A DNA stretch of 11,080 bases from a virus (taxonomy: Duplodnaviria; Heunggongvirae; Uroviricota; Caudoviricetes). Position 1 is the stretch's first letter, and each line of letters starts with the position of its first letter. The notes under the pieces were generated by a model, which was not told the origin of the DNA, searched no databases, and was given only the letters and a program-made list of their open reading frames with translations. A program made the position numbers and the translations under genes. This document shows positions 460-10,799 of this stretch, one piece after another. The stretch lies in IMG/VR virus record IMGVR_UViG_2778261641_000016; one strand, written 5' to 3'.

Positions 460-505
460 ATTCGTAATGCGAAGGTCGTAGGTTCGACTCCTATTATCGG
501 CACCA
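460..505 (+). pseudogene. 3' half of a tRNA-Thr gene (thrW-type, anticodon loop through CCA); attachment-site remnant
   Basis: ATTCGTAATGCGAAGGTCGTAGGTTCGACTCCTATTATCGGCACCA contains an anticodon loop TTCGTAA (CGT), T-arm GTAGG-TTCGACT-CCTAT, acceptor 3' strand TATCGGC, discriminator A and CCA. The matching 5' acceptor strand GCCGATA is absent upstream, so this is a fragment and not a functional tRNA. Identity to E. coli thrW is from memory. Confidence 0.65.
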
Positions 506-1085
506 TCAACAGAAAATCCCGTAAAAACAGCATTCTTTAGCATGTTTATCTAACGGTTTGTAACTTCTGTTCTAACGTCTGTTAGCACTGGTAAACGCCT
601 TTGCGTTGTATCGGCTCAAGTATTGTACAACGTACTGGCGGGTAGTTACCAGGCTCAAGCCCGAACAGCATTAGAAATTATGCCATCCCTTGAAGCTAAA
701 AGAGTTGCCGGACTCTCTAAACACATCACTTGAACCCTTAGCGATACGTTCCGCGCTTCGTGCGGCGCTCAATGATGCTACACGTCGAGATGACGTTGCA
801 GAAAATAAACAGGCGTAATGTTGGGAAGACTAACCGGATCGGGAAAGAATCCGGCTCTGCCACGGTTTCGATCACCGGAGTATAACGATCACCTGATAAG
901 AGAACGTGCTAAGGCTTTATCCTCCCTGCGAAGGGATTACACCCTGCGGAAGCGCTACGCGCCGCCTTTTCTTATGTGCCCAACACGGCACGTAATGGTC
1001 ATCCATTATCTGCACCATTGTAACTTTCGTTGTACTGCCTCTCTGATGTACGTTGAGCGCTGGCAGATTCAGCGGAGGGGATATC

Positions 1086-1244
1086 ATGTCAAAAGCTAAC
1101 CAAAAAGCAGCCACGAAGCGCAACAACCGTAAGATTCACGCCCGTAAATTCCTGGCAACACCAGAGGGGAAAGCCTGGCTTGCTAAGAAGCAGGAAGAGC
1201 GAGAGGAAATCAAGTTGGCGCGAGCTGCAAACTTGATGTTTTGA
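1086..1244 (+). CDS. small, strongly basic hypothetical protein (52 aa)
   Basis: ATG at 1086 lies 6 nt after SD GGAGGG (1074-1079), in frame with track ORF 1053..1244. Product MSKANQKAATKRNNRKIHARKF... is Lys/Arg-rich. Stop TGA 1242-1244. Confidence 0.45.
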   Translation: MSKANQKAATKRNNRKIHARKFLATPEGKAWLAKKQEEREEIKLARAANLMF

Positions 1245-1247
1245 GAT

Positions 1248-1263
1248 GGGGCTAATCAGCCCC
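1248..1263. terminator. GC hairpin between convergent genes (possible terminator)
   Basis: GGGGCT-AATC-AGCCCC perfect 6-bp stem immediately after the stop of the 1086..1244 gene. It overlaps the stop codon of the convergent minus-strand gene and has no adjacent U-tract, so function is uncertain. Confidence 0.3.
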
Positions 1264-2029
1264 TATTGCCCCTATGCTTTTTTTCGAATCTTGTCACAAC
1301 TCTATCCAACCATTTGGGTTCTTCTCTAAGATCTGAGTAGTAACAATTTTCTGGAACCGCGTTCCAGAAAGCAGTTATTGCGTTAGCAAAATCTACAAAT
1401 TGATCTTCTGAGACATGTAAATCGTCATGGTTAGGGACAATCTGCGTGCCTCTAACATCGGTGGGGTTTGGGTAATACTCAGGATGATCAACTGATAGTG
1501 TTTGATGTGCAGGGCCGTCTCCATGCTTGTATACGTTTACCACCAAGTTACAGGCTTTTATCCTTTCTCCGTATTCGGTTCCATTGATTGTGAGGCCAAT
1601 CCATTCGAGCAAATCAATTAGCTGATGGAAAGTTAAATTCCAGATCATGGGGGTAATCAATTCTCTTTCACACCAATTACTTAGCTCTTTGATAGTATGT
1701 TCTCTTAGTTTTTTATCAAACTGATGATACATACCTGCTGTCAACGCCAACAATACGGTATTTTGCATCTCCAGAAGCGACCGTACATAATAAATTCCCT
1801 CATGATAGGCTTGCTCGTAGGCCGCCATTGGGTCATCGTTATCTTGATCAAAATACTCAGCAGTAGTCTCCAAAAACTGTTGTTCTCTCTTCTCTGCTTC
1901 TTGTTCTAAATCACCAAACTGAGAGAGAAGCCGCCGCCTTGCCTCAGAAACGTAAAATTCATGGGGTTCAAGAAAGTATGGAAGATCGGCTCTGGCTAAC
2001 CAGAAGGTGACAAAATTTTCAGTAGACAT
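1256..2029 (-). CDS. hypothetical protein (257 aa), function unknown
   Basis: Long minus-strand ORF. Preferred start is the ATG at 2029 (MSTENFVTFW...), preceded by SD GAGGAA with 4-6 nt spacing; the track start at 2056 has no SD. No motif I can assign. Confidence 0.6.
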   Translation of the reverse strand: MSTENFVTFWLARADLPYFLEPHEFYVSEARRRLLSQFGDLEQEAEKREQQFLETTAEYFDQDNDDPMAAYEQAYHEGIYYVRSLLEMQNTVLLALTAGMYHQFDKKLREHTIKELSNWCERELITPMIWNLTFHQLIDLLEWIGLTINGTEYGERIKACNLVVNVYKHGDGPAHQTLSVDHPEYYPNPTDVRGTQIVPNHDDLHVSEDQFVDFANAITAFWNAVPENCYYSDLREEPKWLDRVVTRFEKKHRGNRG

Positions 2030-2192
2030 ACATTTCCTCAATGAAGCGATAGACATTTTGAGGTTATGTTATCTTCGGTGAGGGTTAAAATCCTCAACTG
2101 ATTCAATGGAATTGTCATTTGGTTTGAAATGCGGTAAAAGAATAAAATTCGTAATGTACGCTTTGCAGAAACAATCTGAAAATGAGGTGGTT

Positions 2193-2420
2193 ATGAGTGA
2201 ACGTTACGAATTTTTACCCAATTGCTTCCTGAAAGTCTCTATCTCATCGGGTTACTTTACTGCCATCCTTGATGGTTCGCTTCCTCCTGATACCCCTGGT
2301 TCTGTTCATGCTGATAATGCCACGCAAGTCATAATCGTACTCGATTCCTACTTCCAATTGACTGACTTACAGCATCAAGGAATTGCTAATTATCTTTGCT
2401 CTCAAGGGATGGAACTTTGA
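2193..2420 (+). CDS. hypothetical protein (75 aa)
   Basis: ATG at 2193 preceded by SD GAGGTGG (2184-2190), in frame with track ORF 2106..2420. Divergent from the 257-aa gene. Confidence 0.4.
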   Translation: MSERYEFLPNCFLKVSISSGYFTAILDGSLPPDTPGSVHADNATQVIIVLDSYFQLTDLQHQGIANYLCSQGMEL

Positions 2421-2875
2421 TAGATTGGTTGCTTAATGTTGATAATCTGACCATGCTTGCCGCATGGGCTGGGTTTGCACTATCCATTTTCCAGCTATTA
2501 AAATCCAGAACAGATCTACGCCTTTTCTTAGGTTGCGATCAGTATGAAGACAGAATTTATGTTTCCAACAAAAGCGCCCATGATGTGACGATAAGTTCGG
2601 CGGGCATAGTAACCGCCAGCGGACGCCTTAGCGATTGTTCTAACGAACATTGTGATGAATACATGATCAGCCCCATGTTGCCACGCCGATTAAAAGCCCG
2701 TGATGAAATGATCTTAGAAGTACCATTCATCAATAAGGCTCACCATAATAAGGTGCATCATCGCGGAGGGGTGTATGTTACTACATCTGATGGGAAGCTG
2801 TTCAGTGATGTTAGTTGGCTGCGTCGTCGCTGGTGGTGGATATTGTCTCTGATCCTACGTGATTCCAAGCAGTGA
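2417..2875 (+). CDS. hypothetical protein with N-terminal hydrophobic (probable transmembrane) segment
   Basis: ORF in track (2396..2875) overlaps the stop of the upstream gene. Possible starts are TTG 2417 (after AGGGA at 2405-2409) or ATG 2453; the start is uncertain. Segment LAAWAGFALSIFQLL is hydrophobic. Confidence 0.4.
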   Translation: MIDWLLNVDNLTMLAAWAGFALSIFQLLKSRTDLRLFLGCDQYEDRIYVSNKSAHDVTISSAGIVTASGRLSDCSNEHCDEYMISPMLPRRLKARDEMILEVPFINKAHHNKVHHRGGVYVTTSDGKLFSDVSWLRRRWWWILSLILRDSKQ

Positions 2876-2933
2876 TTACTTATACACCGCACCAGACCAC
2901 GCTGGTTATCTGCTTGTCTTCCTTCTTCAATTG

Positions 2934-3131
2934 TTACTCCTCTTCAAAGGTCATTGTGTAGCGGCATTGCTGCGACGGCCTGAGCGTCACTGTCTCCGTA
3001 AAGTTGGCGTTGGAATAAACGCAAATCTTCGCGTTGTCTGTCTCCTGTTCGTCACTGAGAATCAGGGTTATCTGTCCGGCATTCGCCAGGACTGGCATTA
3101 CTGTCAGCGTCAGCACAAGCAAGCGTTTCAT
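2934..3131 (-). CDS. small secreted protein with Sec-type signal peptide (65 aa)
   Basis: ATG at 3131 preceded by perfect SD AAGGAG with 6-nt spacing. N-terminus MKRLLVLTLTVMPVLANA has an n-h-c signal-peptide layout. The SD overlaps the stop of the upstream recombinase gene, suggesting co-transcription. Confidence 0.55.
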   Translation of the reverse strand: MKRLLVLTLTVMPVLANAGQITLILSDEQETDNAKICVYSNANFTETVTLRPSQQCRYTMTFEEE

Positions 3132-3141
3132 GCGTATCTCC

Positions 3142-3702
3142 TTATAAGTCCATCTCATTGATCACACGGCTAACGGCTTGCTTGTCTAAATCCAGATAGC
3201 GCCTGGTGTCAGTGATGTTGCTGTGATTAAGCACGGTCATAGCTAAAGCGATGTTGTTTGCTGAACGCTTGTAGATGGCATTCCCGCCAGCTTTGCGGAA
3301 GCTGTGAGCTGATACAGTGCCATGAATACCGATAGCTTTAGCGGCCTCTGCGATCTGCTTGCTCACTTCTTCGCGTCGTACAGGCGCTTGCTTGTTCATT
3401 GATCGGTTACGCTGGCTTCTGAACACATGCACATCATGCGGATACTCAGCACGGCGACGAGCAATCATCTGCACCACTGGAGCAGGGAGAGTGAGGGCTT
3501 TACGCTTCCCTGTCTTCTGTTCTTCTATGTCAATCTCACCGTTGATCACTTCGTCGAAGCGTAACGCTACGGCATCCCCCACACGCAGTACAGCGGCTTG
3601 CATCATTAACGTAACGTCAGCTATCAGGCTCTTGTTATGAGCGTTTAGCCACTCCCTGATCGCTTTGGCTTGCTGTTCGTCTAACACTACTGCTCTGTTC
3701 AA
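3142..3702 (-). CDS. small tyrosine recombinase (catalytic domain only; FimB/FimE-size integrase/invertase, or truncated integrase)
   Basis: Product carries the catalytic signature in order: Arg in VLRVGDAVALRFDEV, HxxR in HSFRK, and HSNITDTRRY near the C-terminus. Probable start TTG at 3702 after SD GGGAGGG; the track start at 3774 is also TTG but has no SD. There is no N-terminal arm/core-binding domain. Confidence 0.65.
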   Translation of the reverse strand: MNRAVVLDEQQAKAIREWLNAHNKSLIADVTLMMQAAVLRVGDAVALRFDEVINGEIDIEEQKTGKRKALTLPAPVVQMIARRRAEYPHDVHVFRSQRNRSMNKQAPVRREEVSKQIAEAAKAIGIHGTVSAHSFRKAGGNAIYKRSANNIALAMTVLNHSNITDTRRYLDLDKQAVSRVINEMDL

Positions 3703-3799
3703 TTTACCCTCCCATAAAGACACACATCTAAACTCAACGAAACAAACAATATGATCAATTTCAGTAAGTTGCAATATAAATGATCAAAAATCGAACTGT

Positions 3800-4009
3800 C
3801 TTGTGTGTGGTAAATGGCGCGATTGCGTCCAGTGCTTAACGACCTCCAGGGCCGCCTCCAGATCGAAAATTTCTTCTCCTCTAAATATCTTGAACAAAAT
3901 CATGATGTTGGCATTTATAAACATGTGTTTGAACATTGCCAAATCCTCAACTCTGCACGAAGAACAGCGGCAACAGCGGAACATCACACTACCAATGCTT
4001 GTGTGTGGT
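3800..4009. repeat. pair of 12-bp direct repeats CTTGTGTGTGGT (3800-3811 and 3998-4009)
   Basis: Exact 12-mer present twice, 198 bp apart, directly upstream of the recombinase gene. Confidence 0.4.
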
Positions 4010-4080
4010 TATTGTCTATCTCATTGATTTAAATCTGATAAATGTAAGGTTGTTAGGCGAGGGCGGGGCTAACCTGCCTG

Positions 4081-4109
4081 TATGCACAAATTATGCGGAG
4101 TTTATGCAC
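4081..4109 (+). repeat. three TATGC(A/G) direct repeats phased at 11 bp (iteron-like)
   Basis: TATGCAC at 4081, TATGCGG at 4092, TATGCAC at 4103, with exact helical-turn spacing, directly after a GC box GGCGAGGGCGGGG (4056-4068). Confidence 0.4.
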
Positions 4110-4460
4110 TTGAAACTGAGTGTGTAATGAAATGATTAGAATGCTAATCAATTGGTGGATTTTGGCATGAAAAAGAAACATCGTTTCATTTTAGAAAACT
4201 CGTTCAGCACATTGCACCTGTCATGAAACTCCTCATTGTGGACAATGATCGCTGTGAGCCGCATGGCGCAAGGCTTTACGCAAAGTGAGTGATGGTTACT
4301 ATCTTGCTGACTATGGCAACTTTACCCATGTAACAACGGCAATCTTTACCTGTCATTTAAGATAGGCTTAGCTATGATTATCGTGTTGTTTTGATAGGAA
4401 TAACCTCTCGTTACTCTTAGTGTTGTTGCATGGATGAATCAGAGTTAGTTGGGGGCGTTA

Positions 4461-4541
4461 TACATCAAAATGATGTATAGATGCATGGGATACGCATCAA
4501 ATTGATGTATGGATCGGCAAACTACACATCAAATTGATGTT
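4461..4541. promoter_or_regulatory. array of three inverted-repeat sites CATCA-N3-TGATG phased at 32 bp (operator-like)
   Basis: tACATCAAAATGATGTa (centre 4469), cGCATCAAATTGATGTa (centre 4501), cACATCAAATTGATGTt (centre 4533). Half-site copies recur at the downstream promoters. Confidence 0.5.
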
Positions 4542-5091
4542 CTATACAAAGAGATTCTAAAAGCGATCTCTAAAAGAGAGCTTTTAGAAGATCTTGTTAA
4601 AGATTCGCTTTGCTGGCGCGTATCGCCTGGCAAGTGACCTGATTCGCCTTTGGGGGCTACTCGGTCAGCCGCTCACGACGCAGCGTAGCGCATCTGTCTG
4701 TGATTGTGCCAGGGCTTCGCCCTCGTGAAACGAGGCACAGAAGCTATGCGCCGTGTGCGCAATGTCTTTCAGCATAACTTCTGCCTGTCTTCCATGCTCC
4801 GCATTCATCCATGCAAAGTTAGCCCACGGCTAAGGATTCACTGGTCGCTGATGGCTCCAGTTCATCCAGCCTCAATCCAATACCATCACCTACTATCCTG
4901 ATAACTAACGTTATCCCTCAGTAGTTGTGCTATTGGTTTCGGGAGTAAGTGCCAGAGGGCGGCGGTAACGCAAACGGAACGCCCCAGACGCGCTGAGAGC
5001 GAATTTGAGAGGATAGGGAGGGGATTGCAACTCTCAGGCTTTCAAACCTGTTAGAAAGCGATAGACCGCGTTTTATGATGACATGAATGAA

Positions 5092-5120
5092 TTGATCACA
5101 ACGTGGAAATGCGCTATAAT
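5092..5120 (+). promoter_or_regulatory. sigma70-like promoter (TTGATC - 17 bp - TATAAT)
   Basis: -35 TTGATC at 5092-5097, 17-nt spacer, perfect -10 TATAAT at 5115-5120; points into the downstream operon. Confidence 0.5.
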
Positions 5121-5142
5121 TTGAAAGGGATTTAAATAAGTG

Positions 5143-5171
5143 TTGACATTTAAATCATTTCATGTTAAAGT
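5143..5171 (+). promoter_or_regulatory. second tandem sigma70-like promoter (TTGACA - 17 bp - TAAAGT with TG extension)
   Basis: Perfect -35 TTGACA at 5143-5148, 17-nt spacer, -10 TAAAGT at 5166-5171 preceded by TGt. The half-site AAATGATGTA (5172-5181) sits at the predicted transcription start. Confidence 0.45.
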
Positions 5172-5266
5172 AAATGATGTAGGGTAATGAAAGCATTCAT
5201 CCCGTCCTCATCTCAGGCATCCAGCCTAACGCAAACAATCCAACTTACACCGCACTATCAGGCAAC

Positions 5267-5515
5267 GTGATTAACGTTCTCCCTGGATGGTGTTTCTGTG
5301 TTTCTAACGCAAGGAGAACCAAAATTAAGTATTTTAATCCAGAACTTGTCTTCGAGGCTTTAAAGGCCGGAAGCCAGACGCGAAATGCAATAAACAGCCA
5401 GCGAGCAGCCGCACAACGGCAAGGATATTTCGAACACGCTGAAAGATTGCGTAAAGGAATCGAACTTTACGATCAATGGAAAGCTGAACAGGCTGAAACC
5501 ACCACCAACGAATAA
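5267..5515 (+). CDS. hypothetical protein; start codon uncertain
   Basis: Open frame in track from GTG 5267 to TAA 5513-5515. A strong SD AAGGAGAA (5311-5318) lies inside it but no in-frame ATG/GTG/TTG follows within 15 nt; only ATT at 5325. Confidence 0.35.
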   Translation: MINVLPGWCFCVSNARRTKIKYFNPELVFEALKAGSQTRNAINSQRAAAQRQGYFEHAERLRKGIELYDQWKAEQAETTTNE

Positions 5516-5533
5516 ACCAGAAGGAGAAACCAA

Positions 5534-5710
5534 ATGAGCGAAATCCAGAAGAAGAAACCAGCCGGAACATTCGTAAAACTGCCGGATGAAGTGTTTAGTA
5601 CTTTGTTCAAAGAGGCGCGAGCGAGAGGCGTAACAGTGCAGGAGATGTTAATTGACGCTGCAACCACACTTTCCACATCAATTAAGAACGGAGAACGTTC
5701 TACCAAATAA
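5534..5710 (+). CDS. small DNA-binding protein, ribbon-helix-helix-like (58 aa)
   Basis: ATG 5534 is 7 nt after perfect SD AAGGAG (5521-5526). Product MSEIQKKKPAGTFVKLPDEVFSTLFKEARARGVTVQEMLIDAA... has the beta-strand/helix/helix pattern of Arc/CopG-type proteins. Not in the ORF track because it is under 60 aa. Confidence 0.55.
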   Translation: MSEIQKKKPAGTFVKLPDEVFSTLFKEARARGVTVQEMLIDAATTLSTSIKNGERSTK

Positions 5711-5724
5711 GGATACACCCTAAC

Positions 5725-6465
5725 ATGACTGACATTATAAACAGTAAGGCTTTTAGTTTCACCAACACCGAAGACGCATTTAACGAATGCACCAGGATCA
5801 CCAATCTTAAAACAGGCGTAACAGAGTCCCTGTCTCCTGCTGATAAGCAGTTTTACGTCAGAATGCGCCATCGTTATTATCGCTTTGCGATAGAGTTGGG
5901 CGGTACTTATTACGATGACATTGATCAACTTGGTGCAAGTATTGGTGTCAGCTCGGCTACGGCAACACGTATTGTTGCAAAGTTGAAGAAAATCGGACTG
6001 ATCGCCAGTAATAAGCCAAAGCGCTCTAACCAATGGACTATAACGCCACTCACGCCGCAAAACTTCACCTTTGAACGTGATCGTAATGCGATGGAACGTG
6101 ATTCCGCGCCGGAATGGGTAGATTGTCTGAAACATCCCGTGTTTGGCAAAGCTAAAGAAGACGTAGCGCCAGAGGAAGAAAAACAGCAGTCAGTGCCAGA
6201 AGAGGCCAAAGCAGATCCGAAGCCGGAGAAGCCAAAGAAAATGCCTACGAAGAAACCCGCCTCCATTCCAGCTAAAGATATTAAGATAGAGCCAGTTAAT
6301 TTAAACTTTCTTGAGGGTTATCGGGATGAATGGGAGAATCCTGAAAAGAATCTACCAGTTTCACAACATCCGAAAATCAGATGGCTACTTATTAACGGAT
6401 ACCTGGACACAGAGAAGAATCCAAAACTTAAACCAATCTACGAGGAAATAGAACATTTATGCTGA
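5725..6465 (+). CDS. winged-helix DNA-binding protein with long Pro/Lys/Glu-rich linker (possible phage O-type replication initiator or regulator)
   Basis: 246-aa ORF. The N-terminal part has an HTH-like segment (DIDQLGASIGVSSATATRIVAKLKKIGLIAS), followed by a low-complexity linker (EEEKQQSVPEEAKADPKPEKPKKMPTKKPASIP). The domain layout resembles replisome-organiser proteins; assignment is from pattern only. Confidence 0.6.
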   Translation: MTDIINSKAFSFTNTEDAFNECTRITNLKTGVTESLSPADKQFYVRMRHRYYRFAIELGGTYYDDIDQLGASIGVSSATATRIVAKLKKIGLIASNKPKRSNQWTITPLTPQNFTFERDRNAMERDSAPEWVDCLKHPVFGKAKEDVAPEEEKQQSVPEEAKADPKPEKPKKMPTKKPASIPAKDIKIEPVNLNFLEGYRDEWENPEKNLPVSQHPKIRWLLINGYLDTEKNPKLKPIYEEIEHLC

Positions 6466-6920
6466 AAACGGTTATACCCAAACAATACAACGAACGTGAT
6501 CTTAACATCATCCATCTTGCCAGTTTATTAAATCCAGAAGTTGAAAGAGGTGTTGCATTCGAACAAGCGCAAGAACTTGTAGATGTTTACGCTGAGCGAG
6601 GTGAATCAAGTTACGCTAATGCTCTTGTTACGCTATTCAATGCAGCGATGAAGCCACCGAAAGAGATAGAATGTAAAATGACATCCCCACATCTTCACGA
6701 TAAGAATCTGTCTCCTTCGGAACGTCTGGTATTAATGCACCTCGAATCACTGCCATCATTAACAAATGTGAAACAGGAGTCAATAGCGATAGTGTTGGGG
6801 ATAAGTGTGGCAACTGTATCCAGTGCGATTCGCAAGCTTCGCCGCAATGATTATCTAACTACTACGTTAATCAAACCTGGTCGCGGTAAAGGATGCGACA
6901 TTACACTTACGACTAAATAA
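6459..6920 (+). CDS. hypothetical protein with C-terminal winged-helix DNA-binding motif (153 aa)
   Basis: Start overlaps the upstream stop (ATGCTGA), implying translational coupling. C-terminal region SPSERLVLMHLESL...ESIAIVLGISVATVSSAIRKLRRNDYL is HTH-like. Confidence 0.55.
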   Translation: MLKTVIPKQYNERDLNIIHLASLLNPEVERGVAFEQAQELVDVYAERGESSYANALVTLFNAAMKPPKEIECKMTSPHLHDKNLSPSERLVLMHLESLPSLTNVKQESIAIVLGISVATVSSAIRKLRRNDYLTTTLIKPGRGKGCDITLTTK

Positions 6921-7024
6921 CAACAATCGGGAAACTTTTATGATTACTGCTTTATGGTGGTTCACCATATTCTATGGCGTTTACGTTATAACCAGACAAG
7001 GAGTTTCCCCTCTACGAGGAATGA

Positions 7025-7408
7025 ATGGGACGAAAAGAACGAAGTAACCTTGTTAGAATCGAAAAAGCCACACGCATCAGCAAACGTAAATACACCTCTT
7101 CTCTACAAGACCTCGCACGAGAGTCTATTCCTGGTGAGATGGTGACAACTATTAAAGAATATCCCGCAGTAGTACCAAATGGATTAGAGTTTGAACTATT
7201 GCAGGATGTTCTATCGTCAACGGATAACGTTTATTACAAACCACGACGCAGACGCGAATATATTATAGATAGTAGCCATCTCAAGAAATGGCAAATAGCA
7301 GGATTTGAACATTACGCCGATTATATTGGGTATTGTCAAACCTGGGGGCTATCCCAGCACACACAAGAGTTTGATATTCTCTTTGACGACAAGGAAAACA
7401 ATGAATAA
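7025..7408 (+). CDS. hypothetical protein (127 aa), basic N-terminus
   Basis: ATG 7025 is 5 nt after GAGG (7016-7019). Its stop overlaps the next start (ATGAATAA). Confidence 0.5.
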   Translation: MGRKERSNLVRIEKATRISKRKYTSSLQDLARESIPGEMVTTIKEYPAVVPNGLEFELLQDVLSSTDNVYYKPRRRREYIIDSSHLKKWQIAGFEHYADYIGYCQTWGLSQHTQEFDILFDDKENNE

Positions 7409-7739
7409 TAAAACTATGGACACAGTGAACACCCTAATTAACTCTTTCCACGACAACTGGCATTTACCAACCTTACAGCTTGTTAATGCAGCGTGGCGTG
7501 AGAGAACGCCCTCCGCGCTTCTGGAAGCGGTGCAATACACTGAACAGGCAATCACTGCCCTTGAACATCTGCAAACGTCTGTAGCTCGTTTGGTGCAGCG
7601 TGACGGCAGTTCGATCACACCAGAAGAAGCGTGGCGTGTAGCTAATGACCTTGAGGAGCTTGCTTGCTCTCTGCAATACATCACCGTTGAACTCGGAGAG
7701 CTTTCCATCCAGATCGCGGAAGAATGCGCCATAACATAA
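7401..7739 (+). CDS. hypothetical protein (112 aa)
   Basis: ATG 7401 is 5 nt after AAGGA (7391-7395), in frame with track ORF 7305..7739. The longer track start has no SD. Stop TAA 7737-7739. Confidence 0.55.
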   Translation: MNNKTMDTVNTLINSFHDNWHLPTLQLVNAAWRERTPSALLEAVQYTEQAITALEHLQTSVARLVQRDGSSITPEEAWRVANDLEELACSLQYITVELGELSIQIAEECAIT

Positions 7740-7754
7740 AAGTTACTAAATGTC

Positions 7755-7783
7755 TTGACATTATGTGCTATATGTGTCATAAT
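7755..7783 (+). promoter_or_regulatory. near-consensus sigma70 promoter (TTGACA - 17 bp - TGtCATAAT)
   Basis: Perfect -35 TTGACA at 7755-7760, 17-nt spacer, extended -10 TGtCATAAT (7775-7783). It starts 16 bp after the stop of the upstream operon. Confidence 0.6.
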
Positions 7784-7789
7784 GAGTTA

Positions 7790-8334
7790 TAGGGTAAGTA
7801 TTCGAATCACTTCACCCTCGTATGTCAATACGCACTCCTTGAGAATGCCGTTCCCATAGCGGCATTCTCTCCCTCTGAATGCTATTTCTGAAAGTGTTGG
7901 TTCTTTGTCTTGTTTGTTCCGAAGGAATGCGCGGGATGTAATATCTCGTTGTGTTGGTATTGCATCGCAATCACCGCGCATCTCCGACTTTTTCAGAAAG
8001 GGCATTCGCTCTTTGCTCATTCATTCCGTTAGGATGAATGTAGTCAGACTGAATAAACGCCGTCAGCGGTAGTTACGTTCAGGCTGGCAATCTCTTATTA
8101 CTATTCCAGTGGTGATATTGAGATTCCATTCCCACTTCTCGCCATGACAGAAGGGCTTCTGTTTTGAAGTGGGAGCAATGACGGGCGATCCTACTTCTGT
8201 TATTCGTAACAGTTGCGCCCTTCATTTTTTCAAGAAGCCATTCTTTAACATCATAATCCTCCGAAACGAAAATGATTTTAACAGAATGCTTTCTAACAAG
8301 GGCATATTCTCCAGGGGCTTAATCGCCCCTTTTT
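7790..8334 (+). ncRNA. candidate ~545-nt non-coding leader transcript (promoter to intrinsic terminator); speculative
   Basis: No plus-strand ORF of 60 aa or more between the promoter and the terminator. Contains a perfect 10-bp stem hairpin (7841-7850 / 7860-7869). Only short ORFs without credible SD. Confidence 0.3.
8313..8334 (+). terminator. rho-independent terminator
   Basis: GGGGC-TTAATC-GCCCC stem-loop (8314-8329) followed directly by TTTTT (8330-8334). Confidence 0.6.
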
Positions 8335-8405
8335 AACAATCTGCATGTAACACTTCCGTTATCAATGGAAGGATAAACGCAGTTATAACGCGAAGGAACA
8401 ACACA

Positions 8406-8621
8406 ATGTTCTTAATAAACAATCGCGACCGAATCCTAAAATACAAATCCGAAGTGATTCAAGTTAATCCTGAGTTAATAGCTAAAGTGGCTGAAATGGC
8501 AGGATGTACCGTTGAAGAAATAGAAAAAGCTGTAGACCAGTATTTCCCTTCTGAGGACACACCTCAACTTAGTATGCAGGAACGGATCGCAATCAAATCC
8601 AAGGAAATCAAACAACAATGA
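8406..8621 (+). CDS. small hypothetical protein (71 aa), first gene of the head operon
   Basis: ATG 8406 is 7 nt after SD GAAGGAA. Its stop overlaps the start of the next gene (ATGA), implying translational coupling. Confidence 0.55.
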   Translation: MFLINNRDRILKYKSEVIQVNPELIAKVAEMAGCTVEEIEKAVDQYFPSEDTPQLSMQERIAIKSKEIKQQ

Positions 8622-8977
8622 TTGTAGACCTAACCGAACTTTTCCCAATTCGTAAGAGTTTCACTGACGTATTGAGCTACGCCACTGATTCTTTTGCAGT
8701 CGTAGAAGGCCGTGTTTTCGACCTGCCAGCAGATATTGAATGCGGCGATGTTATCGGCGCTGATGGCGCTCTATACACCTCCGGCGATGATGCCTTTGTG
8801 GTGGTAAGTGATTTCGTGAGTGCTGGCGACGGTAAAACCGTGAATGTCCTACGTGCGCCTAATGTTGGTAGCTTCGTAGCACTGAAAGCCGACAACCTGC
8901 ACGCAGCTAATCACGCCGCAGCTATCACCACGCTCGAATCCAAAGGGTTCGTATGCCGTCCATTCTTCACCTCTTAA
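8618..8977 (+). CDS. probable phage head decoration protein (119 aa)
   Basis: Gly/Ala/Asp/Val-rich small protein encoded immediately upstream of the major capsid gene, the same position as gpD before gpE in lambda-like heads. Assignment rests on position and composition, not on recognised sequence identity. Confidence 0.5.
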   Translation: MIVDLTELFPIRKSFTDVLSYATDSFAVVEGRVFDLPADIECGDVIGADGALYTSGDDAFVVVSDFVSAGDGKTVNVLRAPNVGSFVALKADNLHAANHAAAITTLESKGFVCRPFFTS

Positions 8978-8993
8978 TCAAGGAAGATAAATA

Positions 8994-10025
8994 ATGAGTA
9001 AAATCGCAATTGGGCGTGAGATGGTCGATTTAGCGCCAATCTTCCAGGCTCTGCCGGAACGTAACTATCTTATGAATGCCCTCGACCTATTCGACGGGGT
9101 AGGTGTTCAGAATCCGAAAGTGGTGGTGACACAGCTTCTGGATGATAACTACAGCCTGTTTAACACCCCGCAGAGCCGTTATTCATCAAACCACGACACT
9201 ACCGCGCGTCAGAATGGCAAAGAATACCTTATCGAGATTCCTTGGTTTGCAAGGGAAGATGAGTTTAAACCTGTAGACGTACAAGGCCGCAGAGTGCAGG
9301 GAACGGACTACGAGCAAACCGTTACCGACCTGTACACCGAATACACTGGCAAACATAAGATTGCTTATCTGCGTACCCGTGAGTCTTACCTGGCCCGTGC
9401 TCTGTTCAAAGGTGAAGTTTATACGCCTGCAACTGATGACCTACTGATCTCTTATGCTGAACTGTTCGGTGTGGTGCCAATGACAGCCAGCGTGAGCACA
9501 GCGACAGCGGCACAGGATTTTGATGCGATCTTAGACAAAGTTCAGGCTGCCGCAGGTGGATTGGCTGGACAGATTGAACGAGTGATCGTATTCGCTAAAC
9601 CTGCTGCATTTAGCCAGATTCGCTTCTCTGACAGTATGTCTAAGGCGTTCCAGTATGTAGCGCCATATGACGACCGTAACCTATTCTACCAGCGTCACGA
9701 GCTTCTCCCTGGTGTTAGTACGTTTAGCCTACCTGGTGCGCCTATCGACATTGTTAAAGTGACAGATCCGCTGATCCTTGCACAGATGCCAGATGATGCT
9801 GACATGGTGGCGGTTCCGGTGTTCAGTAAAGGCACAAATGCTTATCAGAACATCTACGGCGCTGCCTCTGGTAACTTTGCGCTGATCGATGCTGCACCTG
9901 CTGAATACTACTCTTGGGGCTACCTGAGCGAGCGCGGCGATGCTTACCACGTTATGCACGAAAACAGCGCATTACCAGTGAACCATGCGTTAGGTATGCA
10001 GGTGAAGATCACCATCACTGCTTAA
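8994..10025 (+). CDS. phage major capsid protein, lambda gpE-like (343 aa)
   Basis: ATG 8994 after AAGGAAG. Length matches the 341-aa lambda E protein, and local blocks (ALFKGEVY, VIVFAKP...F) resemble E-family blocks as I recall them. It follows the decoration-like gene. Confidence 0.75.
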   Translation: MSKIAIGREMVDLAPIFQALPERNYLMNALDLFDGVGVQNPKVVVTQLLDDNYSLFNTPQSRYSSNHDTTARQNGKEYLIEIPWFAREDEFKPVDVQGRRVQGTDYEQTVTDLYTEYTGKHKIAYLRTRESYLARALFKGEVYTPATDDLLISYAELFGVVPMTASVSTATAAQDFDAILDKVQAAAGGLAGQIERVIVFAKPAAFSQIRFSDSMSKAFQYVAPYDDRNLFYQRHELLPGVSTFSLPGAPIDIVKVTDPLILAQMPDDADMVAVPVFSKGTNAYQNIYGAASGNFALIDAAPAEYYSWGYLSERGDAYHVMHENSALPVNHALGMQVKITITA

Positions 10026-10088
10026 TGAGCAAGCGGGAGCCTGACCCGCTGGAAATAATCAGGCTATTGAATAGGGCGTGTGAACGTT

Positions 10089-10121
10089 GGGAACATCTCC
10101 CCAGTGTTCCCGCCCTTTTTT
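10089..10121 (+). terminator. probable intrinsic terminator after the capsid gene
   Basis: GGGAACA-(9 nt loop)-TGTTCCC stem (10089-10111), then GCCC and TTTTTT (10116-10121). Confidence 0.45.
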
Positions 10122-10144
10122 ATTTCCAGAATGAGGAAAGATAA

Positions 10145-10342
10145 ATGCAAGTGATTGTAAAAAGCGCGGGGCTTCACCTCGCCGTAAATGCTGAAACAGC
10201 AGAAGAGTTATTAAATCTGGCGGGAGTGTGTCGTGTGCTTGAAATAGATCACGGTCATCTACGTCAGTTATTACATCGTGGGCGTAGTGTATCAGATGCA
10301 CTTAATTATCTGGTGAGTAAAAAAGGCGGTGGCGATGCTTGA
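10145..10342 (+). CDS. hypothetical protein (65 aa)
   Basis: ATG 10145 after strong SD GAGGAAAG. Its stop overlaps the start region of the next ORF. Confidence 0.5.
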   Translation: MQVIVKSAGLHLAVNAETAEELLNLAGVCRVLEIDHGHLRQLLHRGRSVSDALNYLVSKKGGGDA

Positions 10343-10799
10343 GATTAATACAAGTAAGATCGTCAACACCGTAACTTTCACCGTTGACAAAGGGAGTATT
10401 GCAGAGGCTAAGGCCGCAGCGGATAACCTTCAAAAGCACTTCCAGAAAATAGCCGATCCCAAGATTCGCTTCCAGGATCTGAAGCAGCGCAGACAGAAAG
10501 CCCGTCAACAAGCCGATGATGCACGTTTTAATGATAAGCCTCGTGATACGAAGGAAATGAAAGCCCAACGTGCGGCGGAGAAGCAGAAAGCCAGGGATGA
10601 AAAGGCCAATCTGAAAGCGAAGCAGCAGCTACAGAAGCGCCAAGAGACAGCCGAGCTTAAACTTCGCCATGCAGGGCTACAAGTGTCAGGAATTAAAGGT
10701 AAATACGGGCTTGATCCTAAATCTCAGTATGAAGCGTTACGTTATATTCATCAGCAAAGCGAAGAGTTTGCGAAAAGGGTATTAACTTTCGCAGCCTGA
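10329..10799 (+). CDS. hypothetical protein, highly charged Lys/Arg/Glu/Gln-rich central region (156 aa)
   Basis: Track ORF overlapping the upstream stop (start ATG 10329 or 10335). Its last ~8 codons are read out of frame from invertase-homologous DNA. Confidence 0.5.
   Translation: MAMLEINTSKIVNTVTFTVDKGSIAEAKAAADNLQKHFQKIADPKIRFQDLKQRRQKARQQADDARFNDKPRDTKEMKAQRAAEKQKARDEKANLKAKQQLQKRQETAELKLRHAGLQVSGIKGKYGLDPKSQYEALRYIHQQSEEFAKRVLTFAA

Follow-up and report, generated by a model that had tools for sequence, protein, structure and literature searches.

A putative structured RNA and a small basic protein gene at the attachment-site end of capsid-encoding integrative elements of the Enterobacterales

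Organisation of the thrW-integrated element

The DNA analysed here, referred to as the window, is a stretch of 11,080 nucleotides from a virus of the Caudoviricetes (IMG/VR record IMGVR_UViG_2778261641_000016). Its first 459 nucleotides are the end of a prophage and contain a tfaE-like tail-fibre-assembly gene (1-225). This prophage is integrated into thrW, so that two elements lie in tandem, and its junction with thrW was found in 15 genomes at 95-97% identity. The initial annotation had placed an att remnant to the left of position 506; this proved correct, as the segment consists of the 3' end of thrW (Table 1). It is the att duplicate left by the left-hand prophage and, at the same time, the left boundary of a second element. 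No complete tRNA was detected in the window by ARAGORN.

The second element could be followed in complete E. coli genomes. Positions 460-10774 are 99.99% identical to a region of E. coli AR_0128 (NZ_CP021722.1), and positions 460-1300 are present with 100% identity in nine complete genomes (AR_0128 and eight others), where they are located directly 3' of an intact thrW gene. In AR_0128, the element has a size of around 13.7 kb and is bounded by thrW on one side and, just past a gene for a 407-aa integrase, by a 16-19 nt copy of the tRNA end on the other. The order is thrW, around 580 nt without annotation, an ORF of 52 amino acids, variable cargo, a 186-aa recombinase, around 1.5 kb without annotation, small regulators and a Rep-like winged-helix protein, an ORF of 119 amino acids, a capsid protein, a 614-aa TolA-like protein and the integrase. 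The capsid gene, which is directly preceded by the 119-aa ORF, is annotated in RefSeq as major capsid protein, and the recognisable virion genes of the AR_0128 element are capsid-related only. In the window, the element breaks off inside the TolA-like gene at position 10774 and is fused to a Gin/Pin-type invertase gene, of which the 3' part is present; in AR_0128, this gene lies around 10.7 kb further on. Due to this break, the window copy lacks the integrase gene and the right attachment site. The junction at 10774 was found in none of 5,426 complete E. coli genomes.

The initial annotation had described the region to the right of the att remnant as the degraded edge of a second integrated element. 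It is indeed the edge of such an element, since it adjoins intact thrW at the left end of the ~13.7 kb element in E. coli genomes; however, it is not degraded: the 506-1085 side is the best-conserved non-coding part of the element, and the damage is located at the opposite end.

The cargo that follows the 52-aa ORF differs between related elements. No match of the 257-aa protein encoded in the window was found in the defence library; the same position is occupied by PD-Lambda-2 B and C in a Winslowiella locus (L054, 6267-8625), by the RelA/SpoT-like system PDC-S33 in a Kluyvera locus (L038, 6156-7820) and by other genes in XYEH3934. This position is a variable anti-phage cargo hotspot of the element family. 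The adjacent tyrosine recombinase is replaced in clade B by a serine resolvase/invertase of around 180 amino acids (L006, 10286-10837; L002, 7266-7805), and the exchange of non-homologous recombinases at one position suggests a shared role in local recombination. Next to the recombinase gene, around 1.5 kb of the window (3703-5266) lack a gene call, and the equivalent gap measures 1.5-3 kb in relatives. The gap contains conserved blocks in a mosaic arrangement (3884-3947, 4129-4406, 4538-4598 and 4804-5012) as well as inverted repeats, one of which is a perfect 14-nt pair (4426-4439/4803-4816). An invertible switch was considered on account of the inverted repeats and was rejected, because all nine genomes show one orientation.

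The region between the tRNA end and the 52-aa ORF is present in 515 of the 5,426 complete E. coli genomes (66-100% identity) and in many viral and metagenome contigs. Among the E. coli carriers are BEN2908 and O104:H4 2011C-3493, in which it occupies roughly 4156313-4156918 of NC_018658.1 on the minus strand. In other genera, 20 of 21 loci have it on the 5' side of the small ORF, some of them only in part, and it is missing in locus L042; these loci include elements integrated at tRNA-Leu(CAA). Three loci (L046, L050 and L052) are filed under Chryseobacterium and Bacillota MAG assemblies and are probably contaminated or mis-binned contigs. Judged by its gene content, the element family probably represents phage satellites.

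Table 1. Positions of the features in the window; paired strands of a helix are separated by a slash, and "RNA" denotes the putative RNA at 588-1010
Feature	Position	Strand	Remarks
3' end of thrW, tRNA-Thr(CGU), 46 nt	460-505	+	identical to the 3' part of intact thrW in loci L001-L007
att-proximal arm	506-587		similar among thrW-integrated elements
Long-range helix	596-600/811-815	+	RNA
Helix	602-611/625-634	+	RNA
Helix	640-642/660-662	+	RNA
Variable insertion domain	~663-690	+	RNA
Hairpin with GCC loop	701-705/712-716	+	RNA; stem differs per clade, GCC loop constant
Long-range helix	736-742/908-914	+	RNA; covaries over ~170 nt, well supported
Long-range helix	749-751/902-904	+	RNA; covaries, well supported
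Helix	753-757/764-768	+	RNA
Helix	782-785/793-796	+	RNA
Loop-to-strand pseudoknot	819-825/979-985	+	RNA; loop CCCAACA (979-985) of the 3' hairpin pairs with 819-825
Hairpin of the initial annotation	834-840/847-854	+	one helix of the RNA; GGGAAAG loop
Helix	864-866/891-893	+	RNA
Helix	870-873/887-890	+	RNA
Candidate protospacer (881-913) with GAG 5' of it (878-880)	878-913	+	equals the single spacer of phage KP13-16
Hairpin with GCGA/GUGA loop	923-927/932-936	+	RNA
Terminator-like hairpin GCGG..CCGC (~946-966), then conserved U-rich tract	~946-973	+	RNA
Hairpin	972-995	+	RNA
Variable linker	1011-1085	+	low sequence conservation (alignment A4, columns 660-774)
Clade-specific hairpin	1058-1062/1070-1074	+	abuts Shine-Dalgarno sequence GGAGGGG (1074-1080)
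52-aa basic ORF with KRNNRKIHARKFLATPEGKAWL motif	1086-1244	+	conserved; constant neighbour of the RNA
Variable cargo	1256-3131		in the window: 257-aa phrog_19541 protein and small ORFs
186-aa tyrosine recombinase, catalytic domain only	3142-3702	-	Pfam Phage_integrase, 2-171 of 172, E 4e-16
Major capsid protein, lambda gpE family	8994-10025	+	Pfam Phage_cap_E, 2-328 of 329, E 8e-15

The conserved region between the attachment site and the small ORF

Two short ORFs had been noted between the att remnant and the 52-aa ORF, and both are present: a 42-aa ORF with a TTG start (690-818), which ends in ...EPLAIRSALRAALNDATRRDDVAENKQA* with the stop codon at 816-818, and a 93-aa ORF with an ATG start (818-1099). 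Direct inspection of the sequence confirmed that neither of them is preceded by a Shine-Dalgarno sequence. Their interpretation as frame-shifted remnants of genes found no support in comparisons with protein families or homologous loci. The plus-strand ORFs (818-1096 and 690-815) matched no family in Pfam, PHROGs and NCBIfam, and an ORF on the minus strand (920-1126) matched none in Pfam and PHROGs. A search of 5.8 billion proteins with the 93-aa ORF returned only three ORF calls of 85-98% identity, which contain most or all of the ORF, and no independent protein family. Protein homology was thus absent for the ORFs at 690-818 and 818-1099, while the remaining frames of 506-1085 were tested indirectly; by the criterion set in the initial annotation itself, this outcome speaks against gene remnants. 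Moreover, none of the 60 E. coli genomes listed carries an annotated feature or pseudogene under the match of the region. The coding tests were based on 33 homologues with less than 96% identity to one another. Of 32 homologues, 30 have stop codons in the 818-1099 frame and 28-30 have indels that break it, and the mismatch frequency is flat across its three codon positions (0.21/0.23/0.22), whereas the neighbouring 52-aa ORF shows the expected difference of a coding sequence (0.12/0.14/0.39). Coding remnants were therefore rejected on the basis of missing family matches, broken frames and the absence of codon periodicity. In all 33 aligned homologues, some frame stays open over 61-134 amino acids, so that the short ORFs of 690-1099 are at chance level. 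What lies above chance in 588-1010 is conservation and the covariation of paired bases, not ORFs.

Homologues of the region were obtained from species-representative genomes, which were searched via the 52-aa ORF, from viral contigs and from metagenomes. The species-representative search yielded 21 loci of about a dozen genera, and a profile search with nhmmer found the region at 160 places; homologues of the whole RNA were searched with nhmmer profiles rather than a covariance model. Compensatory changes were already visible in a first alignment of seven E. coli loci, in which CCGGAU/AUCCGG is exchanged for CUUGAU/AUCAAG, GCGC/GCGC for ACAC/GUGU, and UCCC-UGCGA-AGGGA for GCUUUU-GUGA-AAAAGC. 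For 33 sequences with less than 96% identity, RNAalifold predicted 67 base pairs, 33 of which show changes on both sides; 96.4% of the pair cells are paired, and the covariation score is 0.315 compared to 0.03-0.07 with slid partners. In a refined model of 61 pairs, two long-range helices replace weaker local ones, 97.0% of the cells are paired, compared to 34-42% with slid partners, and 31 pairs covary. In the slid-partner controls of both models, only 32-43% of the cells are paired, and the covariation amounts to 0.32-0.34 across models versus 0.03-0.08 in these controls; the structure was predicted on the same alignment as the counts, which inflates this comparison somewhat, but the margin is still large. 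None of 500 shuffles reached the observed covariation. G-U cells outnumber A-C cells by 264 to 32, which identifies the plus strand as the folding strand. Taken alone, the sequence does not fold with unusual stability (z = -1.5 for either strand), and the case for an RNA thus rests on the comparison between sequences. By this comparison, the window very likely encodes a conserved structured RNA of around 420 nt on the plus strand, at around 588-1010.

No match at the gathering score of Rfam 15 was obtained for the window, nothing relevant appeared in 440-1300 up to an E-value of 10, and four divergent homologues did not match Rfam either. Similarly, no description was found in the literature on thrW elements, satellite RNAs, large non-coding RNAs and phage mini-arrays. 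The putative RNA thus appears to be previously unrecognised, as it matches no Rfam family and none of the papers searched.

The proposed architecture combines local hairpins with long-range helices (Table 1). The hairpin CCGGAT-N9-ATCCGG of the initial annotation, which had been placed at ~832-852, is present two bases further to the right, at 834-854, and constitutes one helix of the predicted structure. The pattern occurs once in the window and in none of 200 shuffled sequences. Its stem is CCGGAU/AUCCGG in most homologues, CUUGAU/AUCAAG in clade B and CCAGCU/GGCUGG in two others; three pairs show double changes, and 97.8% of the cells are paired. A function of this hairpin as intrinsic terminator was dismissed, as no plus-strand terminator was called in 200-1400 and the stem is followed by CUCUGCCACGG. 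The pseudoknot between the 3' hairpin loop and 819-825 shows a swap from U-A to A-U in two clades. In the 3' part, the AAGGG segment (930-935) could pair alternatively with UCCC (923-926) or with CCUUUU (965-970). Two further pairings were discarded: a 3-bp pairing of GCC (707-709) with the Shine-Dalgarno sequence proposed by RNAalifold is unsupported, since GCC forms the loop of a covarying hairpin, and a perfect complementarity of 10 nt between 753-762 (GCGCUUCGUG), within one of the hairpins of the RNA, and small-ORF codons at 1112-1121 was not accepted as a conserved pairing. This complementarity is absent in clade B and about at chance level, and is thus probably fortuitous.

The 5' boundary of the putative RNA was deduced from two loci with different integration sites. 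The first ~95 nt past the tRNA are unrelated between L050, which is integrated at tRNA-Leu, and L052, which is integrated at tRNA-Thr; beyond that, identity climbs until both are nearly identical. This divergence close to the tRNA indicates that 506-587 is an integration-type-specific arm and that the RNA starts near 588. The arm, which contains a tandem 12-nt repeat (TTGTAACTTCTG/TTCTAACGTCTG, 558-581), is the only integration-type-specific sequence of the region; from around 588 onward, the sequence is common to tRNA-Thr and tRNA-Leu elements. A role of the RNA as integration guide was rejected, because the RNAs of L050 and L052 are nearly identical while their targets differ. At the 3' side, conservation runs to about 1010, and each clade possesses its own hairpin directly 5' of the Shine-Dalgarno sequence of the small ORF. 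In L002 and L054, neither a sigma-70 consensus promoter nor a plus-strand terminator was found in the stretch that reaches from the tRNA through the small ORF.

The 52-aa ORF is located downstream of 32 of the 33 RNA representatives, and its mismatches accumulate at the third codon position as described above; the protein is under purifying selection. It falls into 177 clusters, all of which belong to the Enterobacterales where an organism is named (many are unnamed), and the sources call it a hypothetical protein in all cases but one. No Pfam domain, no NCBIfam family and, in a fold search, no match was found. AlphaFold predicts a hairpin of two helices (residues 3-23 and 26-51; pLDDT 88). 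A resemblance to ribosomal protein L34 seen by eye found no support in Pfam. In two loci, L053 and L056, the ORF is disrupted and the RNA is kept.

A phage mini-CRISPR directed at the region

When 50,697 phage records were compared with the region, a single match was obtained, a stretch of 35 nt with 100% identity in Klebsiella phage KP13-16. It is located in an unannotated gap after an array of 12 tRNA genes (locus L178) and is part of a mini-array at L178 2472-2563, which corresponds to around 19365-19456 of OP617741.1. The mini-array consists of a type I-E-like repeat (GTGTTCCCCACATGCGTGGGGATAAACCG), one spacer and a second repeat (GTGTTCCCCACATACTTGGGATAAACCG). The spacer matches 40 of the fetched loci at 33 of 33 positions and nine at 32 of 33. 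The GAG trinucleotide 5' of the match is a functional E. coli type I-E PAM. Based on spacer identity and PAM, 881-913 qualifies as a protospacer, at which interference might take place. KP13-16 is a lytic phage of the Stephanstirmvirinae; the part of the RNA gene that its spacer reproduces exactly is the most conserved one.

No cas genes were detected in the 5 kb examined around the array, and the array would therefore need Cas proteins of the host. Since type I-E spacers target DNA, the match indicates that the phage targets the element and says nothing on whether the RNA itself matters; a spacer against the RNA gene fits an element that is harmful to such phages. The Salmonella phage vB_SEnST11_KE23 (PP856722.1, Vequintavirinae; L179, around 695-835) has a homologous mini-array, which comprises three repeats and, between them, two spacers. 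This array is partly overlapped by small 'hypothetical protein' calls and adjoins a transposase gene, and neither of its two spacers matches any of the fetched loci.

Possible role of the RNA and related systems

The RNA and the 52-aa ORF form a conserved att-proximal module of integrative elements of ~13-14 kb in Enterobacterales. Besides this module, the elements contain lambda-E-like capsid genes, a gene for a Rep-like protein, a hotspot for anti-phage cargo and, distally, an integrase gene. Overall, the data are best explained by a module of an RNA gene and a small ORF whose RNA acts together with the protein in the dealings of the element with phages, which we regard as probable. In this model, the RNA and the small ORF would be made as one transcript driven from upstream. 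Where the element directly follows an intact tRNA gene, the tRNA promoter could drive this transcript; this cannot apply in the genome of the window, because only a tRNA fragment lies upstream of the RNA there. The RNA would act as RNA, most likely in a complex with the basic helical-hairpin protein, and would function in the interplay of the element with a helper or an attacking phage. The partnership of RNA and protein is suggested by their adjacency, the charge of the protein and its predicted shape. A trans-acting role as an RNA-protein complex, taken separately, has in our estimate slightly less than an even chance of being correct. The most far-reaching version is tentative and, taken as a whole, rather doubtful: the RNA might represent a new class of large pseudoknotted RNA that forms a particle with the 52-aa protein and serves as the core device by which a hitherto undescribed family of capsid-encoding satellites would sense, exploit or block phages, and lytic phages might answer with a mini-CRISPR that directs the type I-E system of the host at the RNA gene.

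The main rival, which we consider unlikely, is that the RNA is a purely cis-acting 5' leader of the mRNA of the 52-aa ORF, either riboswitch-like or autoregulated by the protein, which would control read-through into the ORF or its translation and have no function beyond that. It lies directly upstream of the ORF on the same strand, is always linked to it and is separated from it by no promoter or terminator consensus; furthermore, the GCGG..CCGC hairpin with the U-rich tract in the 3' part, the alternative pairings of 930-935 and the clade-specific hairpin abutting the Shine-Dalgarno sequence would suit a leader. However, for a gene of 52 codons, a leader of ~420 nt that folds into long-range and pseudoknot helices would be large, and the conserved core is followed by 75-110 nt, variable in both sequence and length, before the Shine-Dalgarno sequence is reached. 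In addition, conservation extends beyond the terminator-like hairpin, and the RNA is retained in the two loci with a disrupted ORF.

A site that acts at the level of DNA, such as att arms bound by integrase or accessory proteins, an origin of replication, single-stranded DNA that folds, or a cos or pac site for packaging, is very improbable. In favour of such a site, the region adjoins the attachment core, 506-587 with its tandem repeat behaves as an integration-type-specific arm, and satellites often carry their packaging site close to one end; yet the sequence from ~588 onward is shared by tRNA-Thr and tRNA-Leu elements and is hence not bound to the integrase type. Protein-binding sites on double-stranded DNA do not account for 31 pairs with compensatory changes over distances of up to 170 nt, nor for a strand-specific excess of G-U over A-C cells, and the region is not shared as cos or pac by any phage genome in the collection, the sole match being the CRISPR spacer. 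Finally, it is hardly credible that the region holds frame-shifted remains of protein genes, one or several, at a decayed edge of an integrated element: stop-free stretches of 42 and 93 aa do occur in different frames and the window's copy of the element is truncated, though at its far end, but the searches and coding tests described above speak against them, and decay would not preserve 97% of 61 base pairs across genera.

The proposed module of RNA and small ORF resembles several known systems in part. P4 is a satellite of enterobacteria that integrates at tRNA genes, carries a variable anti-phage hotspot and uses an RNA from a leader transcript as key regulator. The present elements share with it the integration at tRNA genes of Enterobacterales and the hotspot with variable anti-phage cargo. 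In contrast, the CI RNA of P4 has a length of ~70 nt and a relative in Rfam, c4, which does not match the 588-1010 RNA; the element carries lambda-E-like capsid genes, no P4 marker gene was found among those scanned, and no target repeats of the seqA/seqB type were seen in the element. The arrangement of a small, very basic protein beside a structured RNA on the same strand is reminiscent of ribosomal-protein leaders and RNase P-type pairs and would fit either autoregulation or a stable RNA-protein particle; however, neither the 52-aa protein nor the RNA shows homology to such families.

The large RNAs GOLLD and ROOL contain many covarying helices and GNRA-type loops, have a length of 500-800 nt and assemble into homo-oligomeric cages. 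The likeness to them is one of location only, a mobile element beside a tRNA gene: the 588-1010 RNA has no match in Rfam, is smaller (~420 nt), is paired with a 52-aa basic ORF and is found in Enterobacterales, whereas GOLLD and ROOL occur in Lactobacillales and in rumen or lake samples. Both are described as Rfam families of large structured non-coding RNAs of prophage-type elements, typically near tRNA genes (PMC5737381, PMC12286853), and their structures are reported from cryo-EM (PMC12286853).

With regard to the mini-CRISPR, a lytic phage with a spacer aimed at a chromosomal element recalls the phage ICP1 of Vibrio cholerae and the satellite PLE, for which a transcriptome has been published (PMC7567579). 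KP13-16 differs from ICP1 in that it possesses only a repeat-spacer-repeat mini-array with type I-E repeats. ICP1 itself is a lytic phage that carries CRISPR-Cas spacers against PLE, which antagonises ICP1.

To our knowledge, bacteria have only a small number of large structured RNAs without an assigned function, and each of those studied so far gave unexpected biochemistry. The RNA gene, which occurs in about one in ten E. coli genomes, would turn a stretch of ~500 bp that is blank in the inspected E. coli genomes into a gene. In a family of small capsid-carrying elements that transport anti-phage systems, among them PD-Lambda-2 and PDC-S33, it is the end that stays constant, and the carriers include E. 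coli, among them O104:H4 and avian pathogenic strains, Klebsiella and Enterobacter; as these hosts are well studied, genetics, RNA-seq and structural work could start at once. The spacer in a Klebsiella phage of the therapeutic type suggests that satellites and lytic phages are in ongoing conflict, which would be relevant to phage therapy.
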